Part shown: one piece after another, positions 3,255 to 58,114 of the stretch | Layout: every line of letters starts with the position of its first letter | How positions within the stretch are numbered: position 1 is the first letter of the stretch | Source of the DNA: a virus | Taxonomy: Duplodnaviria; Caudoviricetes | Length of the DNA: 64,000 bases | Direction: 5' to 3' (one strand) | Virus record (IMG/VR): IMGVR_UViG_3300037400_003843 | Coordinates: 1-64,000 of that record | Notes under the pieces: model-generated | What the model saw: only the letters and a program-made list of their open reading frames with translations | Databases searched by the model: none | What the model was told of the DNA's origin: nothing | Translations under genes and position numbers: made by a program

Positions 3255-3324
3255 AGAGCGGAAGGCGCCGTTGCTTCGCTTTTCGGAGGGTAGCTACTCC
3301 CGTCCTATCCGCTCTACAAAGATA
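3255..3324 (-). ncRNA. Promoter (TATCTTTG) plus structured leader, family B copy 1
   Basis: Minus strand agagcGGATAGGacgggAGTAGCTAccctCCGA...CCTTCCgctct; outer stem agagcgga/tccgctct; matches copy at 10123. Confidence 0.7.
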
Positions 3325-7399: not shown

Positions 7400-8002
7400 C
7401 TATAACTTTTTGAGGTCGTCGTGAATTGATTGTAAAATTTTCGCAAAGGCGGGGCAACATTGACTCTGTGCGCGAATTAATGTTATCATCTGTTCCTCAC
7501 TGGGCTTCCAATGACGGCTTTTTTCGCTCTGTATTCCGTCTTTTACTCCGCGTTCATACTCAAGGTTGCCAAACTTTGTGGCGTCTTTTATAGATATTGT
7601 ATGAGGCTGGGGACGGAGGGTTTTGAGCCAATTTGCTACATCATCATGACTGTATCTCCGCAATACTGCGATAGCAACTTTTAGCATAGCCTCATCCTTC
7701 TCGCTCCACTCTGCGGGCTTCTGCTCTTTCTGCTCAAATTCTTTACCATCTTCAAACCAAGCCTCAGAACATGGGAGTACTCGCGGAGTGGGCTTCTGCT
7801 CTTTCTTCTTTTCGAGGTAGGCAATGATGTTCTTAACAGGTATATTGCACCAAGTCTCCTTTGTCTTGCTTTTGAAATGCTCAACCATTTTCCGCCTTAT
7901 CCTCTCGTCCTCGCTCTCCTTTAACTCCGGGAACACCTCATCCATCGGCTTTCCCGCTTTTGCCCGCTCCAGGGCTTCTTCGTATTTTTCCTTGTAGTCC
8001 AT
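7400..8002 (-). CDS. Modular hypothetical protein
   Basis: MDYKEKYEEALERA, FPELKESEDERIR, EQKPAEWSE, HWKPSEEQM blocks. Confidence 0.85.
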   Translation of the reverse strand: MDYKEKYEEALERAKAGKPMDEVFPELKESEDERIRRKMVEHFKSKTKETWCNIPVKNIIAYLEKKKEQKPTPRVLPCSEAWFEDGKEFEQKEQKPAEWSEKDEAMLKVAIAVLRRYSHDDVANWLKTLRPQPHTISIKDATKFGNLEYERGVKDGIQSEKSRHWKPSEEQMITLIRAQSQCCPAFAKILQSIHDDLKKL

Positions 8003-8004
8003 AA

Positions 8005-8349
8005 CTAATCTTCTATAATTTCAATAATATTCGGGTACATGCCAAACATCTCGTTCCTGGCGCCTCTTGTCTTAAGCCGGTAGGTCTGGCCCTCTTTAAT
8101 CACGGAGACGCCATAGGCATAAGCGTTAATTCCGGTCAGCTCGATCTTGAACACTCCGCTGTCAGTATAGACCATGTAGTAGCAGTCTCCGGAATAGAAC
8201 CCTTGCTCCTTTGCGCCGAGGTTCCATATCCTCTCCACCTTTTCCACTTTGTACTCACCTTCCCTGGTGTAGCCGAGCTTGACCGATGCGGCCAGGGCGC
8301 TTATGGTAAAGATAGCTAAAAAGGCCATTACTTTCTCAATCTTTTTCAT
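8005..8349 (-). CDS. Secreted or membrane-anchored hypothetical protein
   Basis: N-terminal hydrophobic helix, OB-like beta region. Confidence 0.75.
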   Translation of the reverse strand: MKKIEKVMAFLAIFTISALAASVKLGYTREGEYKVEKVERIWNLGAKEQGFYSGDCYYMVYTDSGVFKIELTGINAYAYGVSVIKEGQTYRLKTRGARNEMFGMYPNIIEIIED

Positions 8350-10087: not shown

Positions 10088-10122
10088 AGAAGCTGACAAA
10101 TTTATGTTGGCTGACAAATAGA

Positions 10123-10194
10123 AAAGCAGGAAGGGCTGTCAGCTTACCTTTGTCGGCCGGTAGCTACTCCGGCCTATCCTGCTTTGCAAATATA
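10123..10194 (-). ncRNA. Promoter (TATATTTG) plus structured leader, family B copy 2
   Basis: Minus strand aaagcaGGATAGGccggAGTAGCTAccggCCGAcaaaggtAAGCtgacagccCTTCCtgcttt. Confidence 0.7.
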
Positions 10195-10261
10195 GCAATA
10201 ATTTTACTTTCTGGCAAGCATATCGTCCAAATATGCCACGAACATTGCTATCAGGAACATA

Positions 10262-24801: not shown

Positions 24802-24886
24802 GCCCCGGTGGCGGAAGTGGTAGACGCAAATGGCTAAGGACCATTCACCGTAAGGCGTAGGAGTTCGAGTCTCCTCTGGGGCACCA
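24802..24886 (+). tRNA. tRNA-Leu(AAG), long variable arm, encoded CCA
   Basis: GCCCCGG/CTGGGGC acceptor, AATGG-CTAAGGA-CCATT anticodon arm, AGGAG-TTCGAGT-CTCCT, A73 CCA. Confidence 0.9.
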
Positions 24887-25515: not shown

Positions 25516-25595
25516 GGCGGCTTAGCTCAGTCGGTAGAGCGCATCCGGTCGGCCAGTATTGGATGGGGTCGGGAGTTCGAATCTCCTCGCCGCCT
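25516..25595 (+). tRNA. tRNA-like gene with expanded (14 nt) anticodon loop; anticodon undetermined
   Basis: GGCGGC/GCCGCC acceptor, GCTC-AGTCGGTA-GAGC D arm, CATCC-14nt-GGATG, GGGAG-TTCGAAT-CTCCT. Confidence 0.7.
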
Positions 25596-28941: not shown

Positions 28942-29044
28942 TATCTTTGCTCTTGCTATGTACGAGATAGCGGAAGAAATATAGGATGCTCGGATAAGTA
29001 GGTGTTTGCTCGTACCATTCACTGAAAGTTCGGGCACTTTTTTT
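28942..29044 (+). ncRNA. Promoter plus kissing-loop / loop-E leader, family A copy 1
   Basis: gctat-GTACGAG-atagc; tgctcgga-taAGTAgg...CTCGTAC...ctGAAag-ttcgggca-T run. Confidence 0.8.
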
Positions 29045-29050
29045 ACAAAA

Positions 29051-29626
29051 ATGAAAGAAGAAATTTGGAAGGATATTCCCGGGTATGAGGGGATATACCA
29101 AGTTAGCGATTGGGGAAGAGTTCGCTCCCTCGACATGTTCGTTCCGATAAGGGGTGGAGTGCAAACAAGGCATGGTAGAGTTTTGGTTCCATATATCAAT
29201 ATAGATGGATATAGAACCGTTTCCCTATGTAAAAACAAGAAGAAAAGGACTTTGAGGGTATGCAGGTTGGTCGCTATTACTTTTATTCTTAATCAGTATA
29301 ATTATCCAACAGTCAATCATATAAACGAGATAAAAACAGACGATCGCGTTGAGAATCTCGAGTGGTGCACAGTGAAATATAATTTAAATTATAGAAACCG
29401 GCGAGCAAACGCAACGGCGACAAGAAAACGAAATAAAGTCGGATTCAAGCCTGTTGAGCAATATGACCTAAGTGGCAATCTTGTTGCTGTTTACGAAAGC
29501 ACAGCCGCCGCAGCCCGGGCGACCGGCTGCGGCCAAGGTTTAATTTCGAATAATTGCCTGGGAAGAACAAAAACCGCAGGCGGTTATAAATGGAAATACT
29601 TGGATGGCACAGATATTGTAGAATAA
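29051..29626 (+). CDS. NUMOD4-HNH-NUMOD1 homing endonuclease
   Basis: MKEEIWKDIPGYEGIYQVS, VNHINEIKTDDRVENLEWCT, KTAGGYKWKY. Confidence 0.92.
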   Translation: MKEEIWKDIPGYEGIYQVSDWGRVRSLDMFVPIRGGVQTRHGRVLVPYINIDGYRTVSLCKNKKKRTLRVCRLVAITFILNQYNYPTVNHINEIKTDDRVENLEWCTVKYNLNYRNRRANATATRKRNKVGFKPVEQYDLSGNLVAVYESTAAAARATGCGQGLISNNCLGRTKTAGGYKWKYLDGTDIVE

Positions 29627-32853: not shown

Positions 32854-32927
32854 GGATGGGTAGCTCAGTGGTAGAGCGCGGTAAGAGTTGAGACCGTAAG
32901 TCGCGGATTCGAGTTCCGCCCCGTCCG
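32854..32927 (+). tRNA. tRNA-like gene with 10-nt purine-rich anticodon loop; anticodon undetermined
   Basis: GGATGGG/CCCGTCC, GCTC-AGTGGTA-GAGC, CGGT-AAGAGTTGAG-ACCG, GCGGA-TTCGAGT-TCCGC. Confidence 0.7.
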
Positions 32928-34905: not shown

Positions 34906-35015
34906 TATATTTGCATAGTGAAACTCGTATGACGGACGAGTGATAGAAATATAAAAGCCCCGGACAAGTAGGATAGTGCCGTCATCGCTATTTGAAAATT
35001 CGGGGTCTTTGTTTT
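34906..35015 (+). ncRNA. Promoter plus kissing-loop / loop-E leader, family A copy 2
   Basis: ctcgt-ATGACGG-acgag; gccccgga-caAGTAgg-atagtg-CCGTCAT-cgctat-ttGAAaa-ttcggggt. Confidence 0.8.
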
Positions 35016-35018
35016 ACT

Positions 35019-36182
35019 ATGATAGAAGAAGTTTGGAGCAATATATCTTGGGCGCCAGGATATATGGTCAGCACGCTTGGAAATGTAAGAAGTCTAAATT
35101 GGCGCAGGCAGGGCATAGCAAAGAATTTAATTCCGCGCCCGTCTGGCCGTGGATACCTCCAAGTATCTATTCGGGTTAATAATACTCCCATCCGTGTTTA
35201 TGTTCACAGGCTTGTCGCGGAGGCTTTTATAGATAACCCTAATGGATATCCACAGGTAAACCATAAGGACGAGAATAAAACCAATAATAGAGTTGACAAC
35301 CTTGAATGGTGTGACGGGTCCTATAATCAAAATTATGGCACAGTTAAGGAAAGGAGGCGTAGGACAAATGTCGGGAGAGGAAATATTTGTGCTGGAACAC
35401 CCGTTTGCCAATACTCGTTGGATGGGGATTTTATTAGGGAGTACGCCACGATATCGGAAGCTCAAGAGATTTCTGGTATAAATAGCATAGGTTCTGCAGT
35501 AAACGGAAAGGCTAAGCAAATGGGCGGTTTTATTTGGAGAAGAAAGGGAGAGGACGTCGGGGAGATTGACTTCGATAGATATTCTCTTCATCACGCAAGA
35601 CCGGTTAAGCAATACTCTCTTCGCGGGGATGAATTGGCCTCGTTTCTTTCTATTAAGGATGCCTCTGAAACAACTGGTATACAGAGATTATCAATCATCA
35701 ATTGCGCGAGGGGGAAATTTAGAACCGCTGGCGGCTATGTATGGAGGTATTGCGATGAAGAACACCACCCAAACAATATTAGGAGGGAATTCGAGTTTAT
35801 GACAGACGAATTACACGATGTGCGTGGTTTTCATGGCGAATATAAGGTTAATAAACGCGGAGAAGTAATAAGCATGAATTTTCTGTCTACGAATCGGCTA
35901 GGAATAATGGAGGGTTATACTACAAAACGGGGATTTAGGGGGATAAATATGACAAAGGATGGAATTGCCTACAGGAAATTGATTTGCATAATTGTAGCGC
36001 AATCTTTCATCCCGAATCCGAGCGGTTTTTCTTGTATTGAGCATATTGATGGGTGCCTTACTAATGACAATGTGTCCAATTTACGATGGGTCCGCGGAAA
36101 GCGTGACAGAACAGACCTTGTCTGGCTCCGTAGCGTTAAAGATAAAGTGAGCGATGCGGACTCCTCGCCGAAACTGCTTTAG
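35019..36182 (+). CDS. NUMOD4-HNH endonuclease with two NUMOD1 repeats and a second HNH domain
   Basis: [34 protein letters not shown], two GGxxWR modules, second [19 protein letters not shown]. Confidence 0.88.
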
Positions 36183-38348: not shown

Positions 38349-38423
38349 TATGCCAATCATTGAGACCCCGCCGCATTTTCTCTTCCAAATAATTTTGCTA
38401 TCTTTGCGAAAAATCGTGATAAT

Positions 38424-39656: not shown

Positions 39657-39760
39657 TATCTTTGTATTGCTATGGACGAGATAGCTATTTAGATACATAA
39701 AGCCCTGGATTAGTAGGCGCGAGCTCGTCCCTCCGTTGAAAGTTCAGGGCGCTTTGTTTT
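39657..39760 (+). ncRNA. Promoter plus kissing-loop / loop-E leader, family A copy 3
   Basis: gctat-GGACGAG-atagc; gccctgga-ttAGTAgg-cgcgag-CTCGTCC-ctccg-ttGAAag-ttcagggc. Confidence 0.8.
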
Positions 39761-39763
39761 CAA

Positions 39764-40729
39764 ATGAGAGTAAGAGATATTGTTATCGGGGAACGATACA
39801 AGGATATCCTTGTTGTAGGCCCCAAGTATCGAAAGAACAGGGCAACATATTACGGTTGTCAGTGTATGCGATGTGGGAAAATTTACGAAATGCGTAATGA
39901 TCATATCGGAAATTCTACGTGTTGTGCTGATTGTTTTCCGAAGGACAACATTGTTGATTTATCTGGGAAAAGATTCGGCCGTCTTGTTGCATTAAAGTAT
40001 GTTGGGCGAAATAACGATAGGTCTTTATGGCGGTGTATTTGTGATTGCGGTAAAGAATCTATTACTGGATACTCGAATCTTGTAAGCGGGAACACCCGCT
40101 CTTGCGGATGCCTTGAGAAAGAAAATCTTGCGTATATTCAAAAGCATTCTTGCCGCAGAAAATCGGCGTCAAAGGAATTTAAACAAACTTTATCCGAACA
40201 CCCTCTATATGGTTTATGGTCCTCAATGCTCACAAGGTGCTACAACAAATCACGCAACTCTTATAAGCATTATGGCGGAAGAGGAATAAAAGTTTGCGAC
40301 AGGTGGCTTCCAGAGAATAAGGGGTTCGAGAACTTCTTAAATGATATGGGGCCGAGACCGAGTATTGAATATACTCTTGATAGAATAGATAATGAAGGAG
40401 ATTATTGCCCAGAGAACTGTAGGTGGGCGACGCCAAGACAACAGGGCAGTAATAAGCGAACAAGTATAATTTTATTCTATAAGGGGGCGAGAATTCCCGC
40501 TTTGGATGTATGCGAGGCGACTGGGCTAAAATATCAAACTCTATCGCATCAACTAAAGAGAGGATACGATATAAACATAATTATAGAGAATAAGGGCGCA
40601 GACTTTCGCCAAGGCAAATACAAGAAAAATCTTGACGCTATTAAAACAGGAAACAGAAATATTACTATCTTTGTGCCAGAGTTAGAATCCGATGGCACGG
40701 AACTTGCAGAAGAAAATCCGACTGAATAG
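39764..40729 (+). CDS. HNH-like homing endonuclease (DLSGKRFGRL / YGGRGIKVC type)
   Basis: WRCICDCG, YGGRGIKVCDRW, TLDRIDNEGDYCPENCRWAT. Confidence 0.88.
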   Translation: MRVRDIVIGERYKDILVVGPKYRKNRATYYGCQCMRCGKIYEMRNDHIGNSTCCADCFPKDNIVDLSGKRFGRLVALKYVGRNNDRSLWRCICDCGKESITGYSNLVSGNTRSCGCLEKENLAYIQKHSCRRKSASKEFKQTLSEHPLYGLWSSMLTRCYNKSRNSYKHYGGRGIKVCDRWLPENKGFENFLNDMGPRPSIEYTLDRIDNEGDYCPENCRWATPRQQGSNKRTSIILFYKGARIPALDVCEATGLKYQTLSHQLKRGYDINIIIENKGADFRQGKYKKNLDAIKTGNRNITIFVPELESDGTELAEENPTE

Positions 40730-41121: not shown

Positions 41122-41226
41122 TATCTTTGTGGTACGGTAAGGTCCAGTTACCACAGATAGAAACCTAAAGCCCCACAACGAGTAGGCGCGTGCTGGACCC
41201 ACCGCCGAAAGTTGTGGGGTATTTTG
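41122..41226 (+). ncRNA. Promoter plus kissing-loop / loop-E leader, family A copy 4
   Basis: ggtaa-GGTCCAG-ttacc; gccccacaa-cgAGTAgg-cgcgtg-CTGGACC-caccg-ccGAAag-ttgtggggt. Confidence 0.8.
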
Positions 41227-41233
41227 TAGTATT

Positions 41234-42004
41234 ATGCCTTGGAAGAGATTAACAAGAGAGGAATTTATTCAGAGAGCAAAAGCCGTAAATGGGGATGCGT
41301 ATAATTATGACCTAATCGAATATGAGGGGATGACGAAGAAGATTCATGTAGTCGGGATGGACGGCGAGTTCGATATATGGCCTTATAATTTTTTAAGAAG
41401 GCGCGGACCGCAGACAAAAAATAAGCCTGGATGGAAGGGAGATAGGAGGAGGCCGCTTTACGGTGTTGGAATAAACGACGAATTTGGGGTTACGAGAACA
41501 CCGGCATATAGGAAATGGGCCGGTATCATCGAGCGGTGCTATAAGCCAAATAGAGGGAAACGCTATCCGGCATATGTTGGCTGCTCAATCTGTGACGAAT
41601 GGAAATATTTTTCTTGTTTCAGGCGATGGTTTGAAAAGAATTCTATACCCGGTTATGATTTGGATAAAGATATATTGAAGCAAGGTAATCGTGTTTATTG
41701 CCCAGAGTATTGCTGTTTTGTTCCGAGAGAAATTAACCTTCTAATTTCTGGGCTAAATATTAAACGCAAGGACAACTTGCCAGTTGGCGTTTGTTACTCG
41801 GGGAGCAAGAAGAACCCCTATGTTGTAAGATTAAAATGCCAGAAAAGGACTATTCATGTTGGATTGTTTAAGACAGCAGAAGACGCATCTGCCGAATACA
41901 AGAAAATAAAAAAAGGAGAAATAATTCGAGTCGCAAACGAATATTTCAAAGACGGGAAAATATCAGAAAGAGTCTACAATGCACTCTTGTCCTTTGAAGT
42001 TTGA
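41234..42004 (+). CDS. HNH-like endonuclease with AP2-like C-terminus
   Basis: LYGVGIND, YVGCSICDEW, YDLDKDIL, YCPEYCCFVP, LPVGV...HVGLFKTAEDAS. Confidence 0.85.
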   Translation: MPWKRLTREEFIQRAKAVNGDAYNYDLIEYEGMTKKIHVVGMDGEFDIWPYNFLRRRGPQTKNKPGWKGDRRRPLYGVGINDEFGVTRTPAYRKWAGIIERCYKPNRGKRYPAYVGCSICDEWKYFSCFRRWFEKNSIPGYDLDKDILKQGNRVYCPEYCCFVPREINLLISGLNIKRKDNLPVGVCYSGSKKNPYVVRLKCQKRTIHVGLFKTAEDASAEYKKIKKGEIIRVANEYFKDGKISERVYNALLSFEV

Positions 42005-42045
42005 AATTATGCAAGTATTTTTTATCTTTGCATCAAATTGGTAAA

Positions 42046-57528: not shown

Positions 57529-57596
57529 TATATTTGCACGGAGGAAAAATCTCATATCCATAAACCCGGCCGGTTGCGAAATCCGCTGGGTTTTTC
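57529..57596 (+). ncRNA. Promoter plus short terminated transcript (candidate sRNA)
   Basis: TATATTTG, about 25 nt, then acccggc...gctgggt-ttttt; no ATG-initiated ORF. Confidence 0.35.
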
Positions 57597-57634
57597 TTTG
57601 CATTTTACGGAAGTTTTTTTATCTTTGCGACAGA

Positions 57635-58114
57635 ATGAAAAACCAGTGGCATAGACAACTTCGCAGGGAGGCATCGGCGCACCACATGTGTGCCGAGAAT
57701 CGCTCCGCTCTGGAAAACATTTCCGACAAGGGCGAAGCGATTGCCTTGTACAAGAAGACGATTGACTGGGCCCTGGAGGAAGGCTATCCGTGCATGGAAA
57801 CGCTCCGTAGCGAGTTTTCAGGCTGCGAGGCTTACGGCATCTTCGTCGATAAGGTCTTCCACGGCGAGAGGCTGGATGACCAGCAGGTCTATGTCTTCCA
57901 CAACTGCTCCGGAACTATCCGTACCGGTCTGAATGTCCAGAAGAGAATAATCCCCATGCTGTACTTCGCCAACGGATGCAACATGGATGTGAAGCCTATC
58001 AGCGAGACGGCACCGAAAGTGCGCGTCCCGCTTTATATTTTTGGTCCTAACCGGGTCAATGCCGAGCAGTCCGACAATATTGAGTGTGTAACCCATAAAT
58101 TCGAGGTCAAGTAA
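57635..58114 (+). CDS. Hypothetical protein
   Basis: 159 aa, own TATCTTTG promoter at 57620-27. Confidence 0.8.
   Translation: MKNQWHRQLRREASAHHMCAENRSALENISDKGEAIALYKKTIDWALEEGYPCMETLRSEFSGCEAYGIFVDKVFHGERLDDQQVYVFHNCSGTIRTGLNVQKRIIPMLYFANGCNMDVKPISETAPKVRVPLYIFGPNRVNAEQSDNIECVTHKFEVK

Follow-up and report, generated by a model that had tools for sequence, protein, structure and literature searches.

The 64,000 nucleotides (nt) analysed here, hereafter the window, are the first 64 kb of a complete virus record of 73,670 base pairs (bp) with direct terminal repeats (IMG/VR record IMGVR_UViG_3300037400_003843). They come from a Bacteroidota-type phage with four HNH endonuclease cassettes, each having its own predicted promoter and a leader RNA of about 95 nt. 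Judged from its sequence variation among relatives, this leader is a real, strongly covarying structured RNA, with a loop-loop kiss predicted within one molecule, and it belongs to a mobile cassette made of promoter, leader and HNH gene. Regarding its function, the leader may be a cis-acting governor, either a leaky terminator, a brake on ribosome loading or both, keeping the output of the nuclease low, a reading that is given a probability of about 0.5. A first-pass annotation of this DNA had already proposed a riboregulator silencing the nuclease, and a silencing or attenuating role stands as the best reading. Homing endonucleases are among the commonest selfish genes of phages, and restraint of their expression is known for a few T4-type cases only.

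Fold and covariation of the leader RNA

The same order of parts is found at all four sites: a TAnnTTTG motif, hairpin P1, an A-rich linker, hairpin P2, a T-rich tail and the ATG. Direct reading of every site bore out the four copies, their positions and this order as first annotated. The motif is called a promoter on the basis of TAnnTTTG being the established -7 consensus of Bacteroides-type promoters, and P1 starts 4-10 nt downstream of it. P1 carries a 7-nt loop (L1) on a stem of 5-6 bp, the loop agreeing with the first description and the stem being not always of the 5 bp given there. The linker of about 15-19 nt leads to P2, whose basal stem has 8-10 pairs and whose upper stem has about 8; between the two stems is an internal loop, in which AGUA on the 5' strand faces GAA(A) on the 3' strand. 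The 7-nt loop of P2 (L2) is located 49-52 nt from L1 on the same strand of the same leader. The ATG lies 11-15 nt 3' of the P2 stem. Besides these four copies, no further leader-type AGTAGG...GAAA site was found in the 73,670-bp genome. Relatives were gathered by pattern scans of IMG/VR, by two covariance models (R1 and R2) and by scans of whole related records. The features of the window are as follows, where aa stands for amino acids and ORF for open reading frame.

28942..28949, + strand: promoter -7 motif of copy 1, TATCTTTG, predicted, fitting the Bacteroides-type TAnnTTTG consensus
28955..29046, + strand: leader RNA of copy 1, model R1 94.2 bits, T-rich tail at the 3' end; P1 28955-28971, L1 GTACGAG 28960-28966, linker 28972-28986, P2 28987-29036, AGUA 28997-29000, L2 CTCGTAC 29009-29015, GAA 29024-29026
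29051..29626, + strand: HNH homing endonuclease of copy 1, NUMOD4-HNH_3-NUMOD1, 191 aa (Pfam; PHROG phrog_59)
34906..34913, + strand: promoter -7 motif of copy 2, TATATTTG, predicted from the motif
34923..35015, + strand: leader RNA of copy 2, model R1 74.7 bits, T-rich tail at the 3' end; P1 34923-34941, L1 ATGACGG 34929-34935, P2 34957-35006, AGUA 34967-34970, L2 CCGTCAT 34979-34985
35019..36182, + strand: HNH homing endonuclease of copy 2, NUMOD4-HNH_3-NUMOD1, 387 aa (Pfam, PHROGs)
39657..39664, + strand: promoter -7 motif of copy 3, TATCTTTG, predicted from the motif
39669..39760, + strand: leader RNA of copy 3, model R1 95.4 bits, T-rich tail at the 3' end; P1 39669-39685, L1 GGACGAG 39674-39680, P2 39702-39750, AGUA 39712-39715, L2 CTCGTCC 39724-39730
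39764..40729, + strand: endonuclease of copy 3, 321 aa, no Pfam match; PHROGs phrog_374/3377, 'HNH endonuclease'
40666..40673, + strand: candidate exit promoter TATCTTTG within the 3' end of the copy 3 nuclease gene, proposed by analogy with T4 mobE
41122..41129, + strand: promoter -7 motif of copy 4, TATCTTTG, predicted from the motif
41136..41229, + strand: leader RNA of copy 4, model R1 91.5 bits, T-rich tail at the 3' end; P1 41136-41152, L1 GGTCCAG 41141-41147, P2 41170-41220, AGUA 41181-41184, L2 CTGGACC 41193-41199
41234..42004, + strand: endonuclease of copy 4, 256 aa, no Pfam match; PHROGs phrog_953/374, 'HNH endonuclease'
42023..42030, + strand: candidate exit promoter TATCTTTG just past the copy 4 nuclease stop, 15 nt upstream of the ATG of a 581-aa ORF

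In nested minimum-free-energy folds of all four copies, both P1 and P2 appear and their 7-nt loops are open. L1 and L2 are exact reverse complements of each other in every copy, in agreement with the first annotation, and the complementarity ends at the loop edges. The upper stem of P2 is present as described, but is imperfect, as copy 1 has two U-U mismatches in it and a C is bulged out in copies 3 and 4. The covariation statistics were taken from an 18-sequence alignment of distinct family members, in which P1 and the kiss have standard pairs in 99.1% of cells, compared to 66.5% in column shuffles, with 0 of 500 shuffles reaching as high a value; when the partner is slid by 1-3 columns, the fraction falls to 27-51%. 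Moreover, 11 of the 12 pairs of P1 and the kiss have changed on both sides. The 7-bp kiss taken alone is Watson-Crick in 126 of 126 cells, and six of its seven pairs show double changes. P2 covaries as well, and since it makes use of G-U pairs, which on the opposite strand would turn into C-A mismatches, the fold belongs to the sense RNA. The predicted free energies of the cognate loop duplexes range from -8.5 to -11.3 kcal/mol, while non-cognate duplexes in the phage genome are no better than -5.8 kcal/mol.

The sequence signature of the internal loop (5'-AGUA-3' opposite 5'-GAA-3', flanked by helices), which had been recognised at the outset as the sarcin-ricin/loop-E motif, occurs in all four copies and in all 27 tabulated members, and the loop is, by this signature, of the bulged-G/loop-E type. 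It was also considered as a K-turn and rejected as such, the tandem G-A arrangement being absent from the sequences. Few unpaired positions of the leader are invariant. The basal stem of P2 is G+C-rich and the T-rich tail follows directly 3' of it, as expected for the sequence of an intrinsic terminator. This layout is seen in every member; in the 10-nt tail after the basal stem, the T fraction averages 0.70 (range 0.5-0.9, n = 23), compared to 0.245 in the genome. In addition, the ATG is found 3-7 nt past the model end in 28 of the 29 core members with downstream sequence.

Regarding additional pairings, the 10 nt at 34914-34923 of copy 2, located between promoter and P1 and beginning with CAU, can pair with 35012-35021, ending in the AUG start codon, at -9.6 kcal/mol, compared to -3.3 kcal/mol for shuffled sequences. 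This outer helix, with compensatory changes, is also present in L104:2984 and L139:625 and is not found in the other 23 members tested, and a helix between the 5' end and the start codon was rejected as a general feature (3 of 26 members). Inspection by eye revealed no conserved alternative pairing of the antiterminator type.

The four L1/L2 codes (GTACGAG/CTCGTAC, ATGACGG/CCGTCAT, GGACGAG/CTCGTCC and GGTCCAG/CTGGACC in copies 1-4) are indeed four different pairs, as first reported, but those of copies 1 and 3 are the same at six of the seven positions. A set of orthogonal codes within the genome was rejected, as these two differ by a single pair and their cross-duplex is about -5 kcal/mol. 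The core family has at least 12 loop codes and the distant members described below add three more. The outer pairs of the kiss (G-C, A-U, G-C) are near-invariant, while the central four positions are free to vary. A single scaffold carries, in nature, at least 12 matched kissing codes of 7 bp, a set with a possible use in RNA design.

A comparison of L141:4222-4311 with L142:5262-5351 reveals 61 identical nt and seven differences, none of them outside the two loops L1 and L2 and the upper-stem 5' strand, a clustering with p of about 9e-5 under uniform change, and the code passes from GTACGAG to GGTCGAG on a constant scaffold. Another pair of leaders shares loops and stems and differs at 11 of 25 linker and basal-stem positions. 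Thus, the leader copies have a mosaic make-up, with a code that can change while the scaffold stays the same.

The mobile cassette, its nucleases and the reach of the family

The leader is present, absent or left over together with its cassette. Records G000 and G003 have promoter, leader and HNH gene all at the site of copy 1, while the relative G002 (L155:1770-1790) has the empty site for this cassette, where the upstream stop and the downstream ATG are 2 nt apart and promoter, leader and nuclease are equally missing. A third state is a decayed cassette in G005 (7797-8040; L126:1500-1745), possessing the promoter TACCTTTG and an intact leader with the kiss GTACGAG/CTCGTAC, followed by just a C-terminal NUMOD-like HNH remnant and then by the conserved downstream gene. 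These empty, full and decayed states agree with the life cycle that homing endonuclease genes usually go through, namely invasion, decay and loss. The cassettes are inserted between different genes, and in five related genomes all 15 matches of the covariance model fall inside endonuclease cassettes. Non-nuclease genes with the same promoter type (e.g., at 38399 and 42023) have short unstructured leaders of 5-32 nt. The leader can serve as a marker for endonuclease cassettes and their decayed remnants in metagenomes.

Within these cassettes, leaders and nucleases are freely combined, as one leader type is found upstream of different HNH ORFs and near-identical ORFs stand behind leaders of different code. 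PHROGs places all four downstream proteins of the window in HNH endonuclease families; Pfam finds NUMOD4-HNH_3-NUMOD1 in proteins 1 and 2, and proteins 3 and 4 have one core region in common, with nothing significant when these two were compared by sequence search with solved structures. From these sequences we see two related groups rather than the three separate architectures originally described. Among the five related genomes, 8 of the 13 NUMOD4-type genes carry the kissing leader (family A), and two in the studied genome carry another one, called family B. It is located upstream of two further NUMOD4-type HNH genes of the window (10104-10201 on the - strand and about 3255-3324) and has, after TATATTTG, an outer stem GCAGGA/TCCTGC around a small hairpin (loop AGTAGCTA) and then a T-rich tract. 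Due to this tract 3' of the outer stem, the family B leader looks like a terminator type too. Three NUMOD4-type HNH genes in relatives are without a family A leader (G003:60306-60440, G002:10375-10515 and G002:30536-30604).

The core family comprises at least about 27 distinct members in at least about 20 IMG/VR contigs, mostly phage records of 48-77 kb, and five records searched whole have 1-4 leader copies each. In the first IMG/VR pattern scan, about 20 of 120 among the matches listed passed the stem and kiss filter, most matches being due to chance; two narrower patterns added few contigs, suggesting that the sub-family is rare in IMG/VR in the form captured by the patterns. Beyond the core there are three distant lineages in which the AGUA/GAA module and the T-rich tail are retained, together with loop-loop complementarity over 7-8 nt, but the codes are new and P1 is looser. 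One of them (L020/L037) stands directly upstream of a PAPS_reduct gene; another (L101/L107), located between NinG and HTH_36 genes, is the same as that on a prophage contig of Prevotella sp. KH2C16; and in the third (L012/L049) the next ORF, without Pfam match, begins 180 nt downstream and the T-rich tail is kept. The members ahead of PAPS_reduct and HTH_36 genes indicate that the RNA is not confined to nucleases. Consequently, the coupling of the RNA to endonuclease function that was proposed in the first-pass annotation holds within the clade and not for the distant homologues, which are in part found ahead of non-nuclease genes, an outcome that the annotation itself had named, in part, as counting against its proposal.

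Outside phages, a pattern scan of species-representative genomes gave seven matches, a single one being real (the KH2C16 prophage contig), and model R2 run on 151 genomes of the bacterial family of KH2C16 returned the same prophage only, plus two ordinary terminators. By these searches, the leader RNA is rare in bacterial chromosomes. The leader was also absent at eight viral loci encoding relatives of the copy 4 nuclease with 29-42% identity, and is thus limited to a clade and does not accompany that nuclease family everywhere. When 8 kb of the window were compared with a phage collection by megablast, no match was obtained.

An existing Rfam identity, left open at first, was looked for at gathering and permissive thresholds in Rfam 15 without any match of the leader: the scan of the whole window at the gathering threshold returned three transfer RNAs (tRNAs) only, and in the E-value scans the best hit had an E of 7.5 at copy 1, with none up to E 1 over copies 2-4 and none on L012 and L107. 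The three tRNA genes, which reach the Rfam tRNA gathering score, are located at 24802-24883, 25516-25595 and 32854-32927. The leader is also undescribed in the literature searched, apart from a possible unnamed entry in an automated catalogue of 10,006 viral candidate RNAs (PMC10690425). Here, then, a covarying RNA fold moves with nuclease genes in uncultured Bacteroidota-type phages, outside the catalogued families.

Possible roles of the leader

According to the favoured reading, P2 would act as a leaky intrinsic terminator and, as it abuts the start codon, would also slow ribosome loading. Most transcripts coming from the cassette promoter or from upstream read-through would end before the nuclease ORF, or stay poorly translated, and the phage would make little of a potentially harmful nuclease. 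The kiss between P1 and L2, the bulged-G-type module and the length-constrained A-rich linker may pre-organise the long P2 hairpin or may instead offer a recognition feature to a trans-acting factor. A terminator is favoured over a mere ribosome landing site, because the T-rich tail is kept in the distant leader whose ORF is 180 nt away (L012/L049). In cassettes 3 and 4, the following gene could be transcribed anew from the TATCTTTG motif at the 3' end, whereas no exit promoter is recognisable in cassettes 1 and 2. Elsewhere in the window, at 57529-57640, a simple G+C-rich hairpin and its T tract come after TATATTTG and before a second motif, TATCTTTG, located 8 nt ahead of an ATG; this is a promoter-terminator-promoter arrangement without the kissing fold.

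Several points weigh against such a throttle. If the terminator were strong, it would exert polarity on the conserved genes that follow cassettes 1 and 2, which lack a recognisable exit promoter, and a plain hairpin would suffice for termination, so that this model alone leaves the conserved kiss, AGUA/GAA loop and linker unexplained. With a consensus promoter placed immediately ahead of a terminator, read-through seems more likely to be conditional than constitutive. A simple terminator scan, which accepts loops of 3-8 nt only, did not flag P2, and pairing that hides the AUG is found in only 3 of 26 members. The polarity, the promoter-before-terminator layout and the sufficiency of a plain hairpin keep two other roles alive, namely a switch gated by a factor or ligand and a stabiliser, insulator or processing site.

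A conditional switch is possible, though on the unlikely side. The cassette promoter would constitutively produce a short terminated leader, and a phage or host factor, or a small ligand, recognising the kissing fold would permit timed read-through, much as with Q in lambda or in a riboswitch, which fits a consensus promoter adjoining a terminator-like hairpin, as well as the position of distant members ahead of replication-type or early-type genes. It would also give a meaning to three-dimensional features that are kept while the sequences vary, with 12 codes on a constant AGUA/GAA and a similar linker length. However, a switch of this kind is not helped by the lack of any conserved antiterminator pairing seen, the few invariant unpaired positions are poor material for a ligand pocket, and no candidate factor was found. 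The same standing is given to the broader alternative of a gated antitermination or translation switch read by its shape, through a factor or ligand, or of two RNAs pairing through L1 and L2. If the gated-switch or the two-RNA reading is true, the loop code is under selection to change.

It is also conceivable, but rather unlikely, that the leader is a stabiliser, an insulator or a processing site of the messenger RNA. As a 5' domain it would block decay that depends on the 5' end or keep folding independent of context, and P1 does begin 4-10 nt after the promoter motif, near the presumed 5' end, in cassettes that sit between different genes; alternatively, P2, a helix split in two by its internal loop, could be cut by a double-strand RNase in the manner of the T7 RNase III sites. 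A stabiliser, however, would increase the amount of nuclease, which phages usually keep in check (PMC2988022), and the T-rich tail of the member far from its ORF is left unexplained.

The leader seems improbable as an independent small RNA acting in trans, in which promoter, an RNA of about 95 nt and terminator form a unit and the RNA either dimerises through L1 and L2 or serves as a partner or antitoxin of the nuclease, as in ToxIN. The order of the locus matches the type III toxin-antitoxin layout as generally known, one distant member has no ORF for 180 nt, and an intact leader stands beside a decayed nuclease gene. This last observation cuts both ways: a partner RNA of the nuclease would hardly persist beside a dead gene or be freely shuffled among nucleases. 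The suggestion that the leader is the RNA component of a nuclease ribonucleoprotein found no support accordingly, as the same leader occurs with different nucleases, the same nuclease type occurs with different codes, and the leader outlives the decayed gene. Furthermore, the downstream proteins are HNH proteins in PHROGs, not the endoribonuclease toxins that are generally known from such systems, no tandem repeats are present, and codes 1 and 3, one pair apart, are not orthogonal.

A self-cleaving ribozyme trimming the 5' end of the nuclease messenger RNA is very improbable: small ribozymes are generally known to be common near phage genes, often with loop-loop contacts, but the leader matches no Rfam ribozyme family, has very few conserved unpaired nucleotides and lacks a multi-helix junction. 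An element at the DNA level (for example a cruciform, a recombination site or a target site) is barely credible: the Watson-Crick-only P1 and kiss would pair on the other strand too, but the many G-U pairs of P2 would be C-A mismatches there, the orientation to promoter and ORF is fixed in every member, and the empty site is without the whole element.

Comparison with known systems

The initial annotation compared the leader to the P2/P3 scaffold of the lysine riboswitch (RF00168), and the likeness holds for the shared parts, a loop-E-type module and a loop-loop kiss, and not for the system. The five-way junction, the K-turn, the ligand core and nearby lysine genes are all missing in the phage RNA, and membership in the lysine riboswitch was rejected, as the leader has only two hairpins and no multi-helix junction, gives no model match and precedes nucleases. 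The kiss itself resembles those of ColE1 RNA I/RNA II and TAR/TAR*, in that two 7-nt loops pair along their full length, by Watson-Crick pairs only. However, those pairs act in trans, sense versus antisense, whereas the phage loops are about 50 nt apart on one RNA of about 95 nt, with a varying code.

In its layout, the cassette is similar to the PR'-6S RNA-tR' region of lambda with its Q protein, where a promoter is followed by a terminator at short range and the downstream genes need read-through. The systems differ because Q loads at a DNA site and the 6S RNA has no comparable conserved fold, and no Q-like factor or pause site was found here. ToxIN, a type III toxin-antitoxin system, has promoter, structured RNA, terminator and nuclease gene in the same order; ToxI, however, is a tandem repeat processed by its endoribonuclease toxin, while the phage leader is a single unit before HNH endonucleases of more than one type. 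HNH endonucleases are DNA-cutting enzymes and not the endoribonucleases of type III toxin-antitoxin systems. A ToxIN-like membership was rejected, with no tandem RNA repeats in the four copies and the downstream proteins being annotated as HNH endonucleases in PHROGs.

Closer to the proposed role are the hairpins at the ribosome-binding sites of I-TevI, I-TevII, I-TevIII, segB and Aeh1 mobE (PMC2988022), where a leader structure limits a homing endonuclease, as it may do here. In these T-even locks the late promoter is embedded in the hairpin, whereas in the phage leader the promoter is upstream of the whole fold; in addition, the AUG is paired in just 3 of 26 leader members and there is no Shine-Dalgarno element to hide. 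The leader was not assigned to this class of translational locks, considering the pairing of the AUG in those few members and the promoter outside the fold.

The restraint of T4 mobE and segF is the other close relative, as a weak intrinsic terminator at the 5' end of these genes causes about 30% termination (PMC2790892; PMC2988022). The mobE terminator is found only in phages bearing mobE, and a promoter at the 3' end of mobE, which is a middle promoter in T4, compensates for it (PMC2790892). The phage cassettes share with them a terminator-type hairpin and U tract at the start of a free-standing HNH cassette between conserved genes, the hairpin travelling with the cassette and being absent from empty sites, and a 3' promoter (a candidate one in cassettes 3 and 4) that can rescue the next gene. 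In T4, however, the hairpin is located within the coding sequence and is simple, with 9 bp and a 4-nt loop, and mobE lacks its own promoter; the phage hairpin stands before the ORF, right after the cassette promoter and within a two-hairpin fold with the kiss and AGUA/GAA, and its termination is predicted. The AGUA/GAA module, the 7-nt kissing loops and restraint by a terminator are each known singly; their combination on a cassette-borne leader is undescribed in the literature searched and offers a testable model, in which mobile nuclease cassettes would bring their own expression control.

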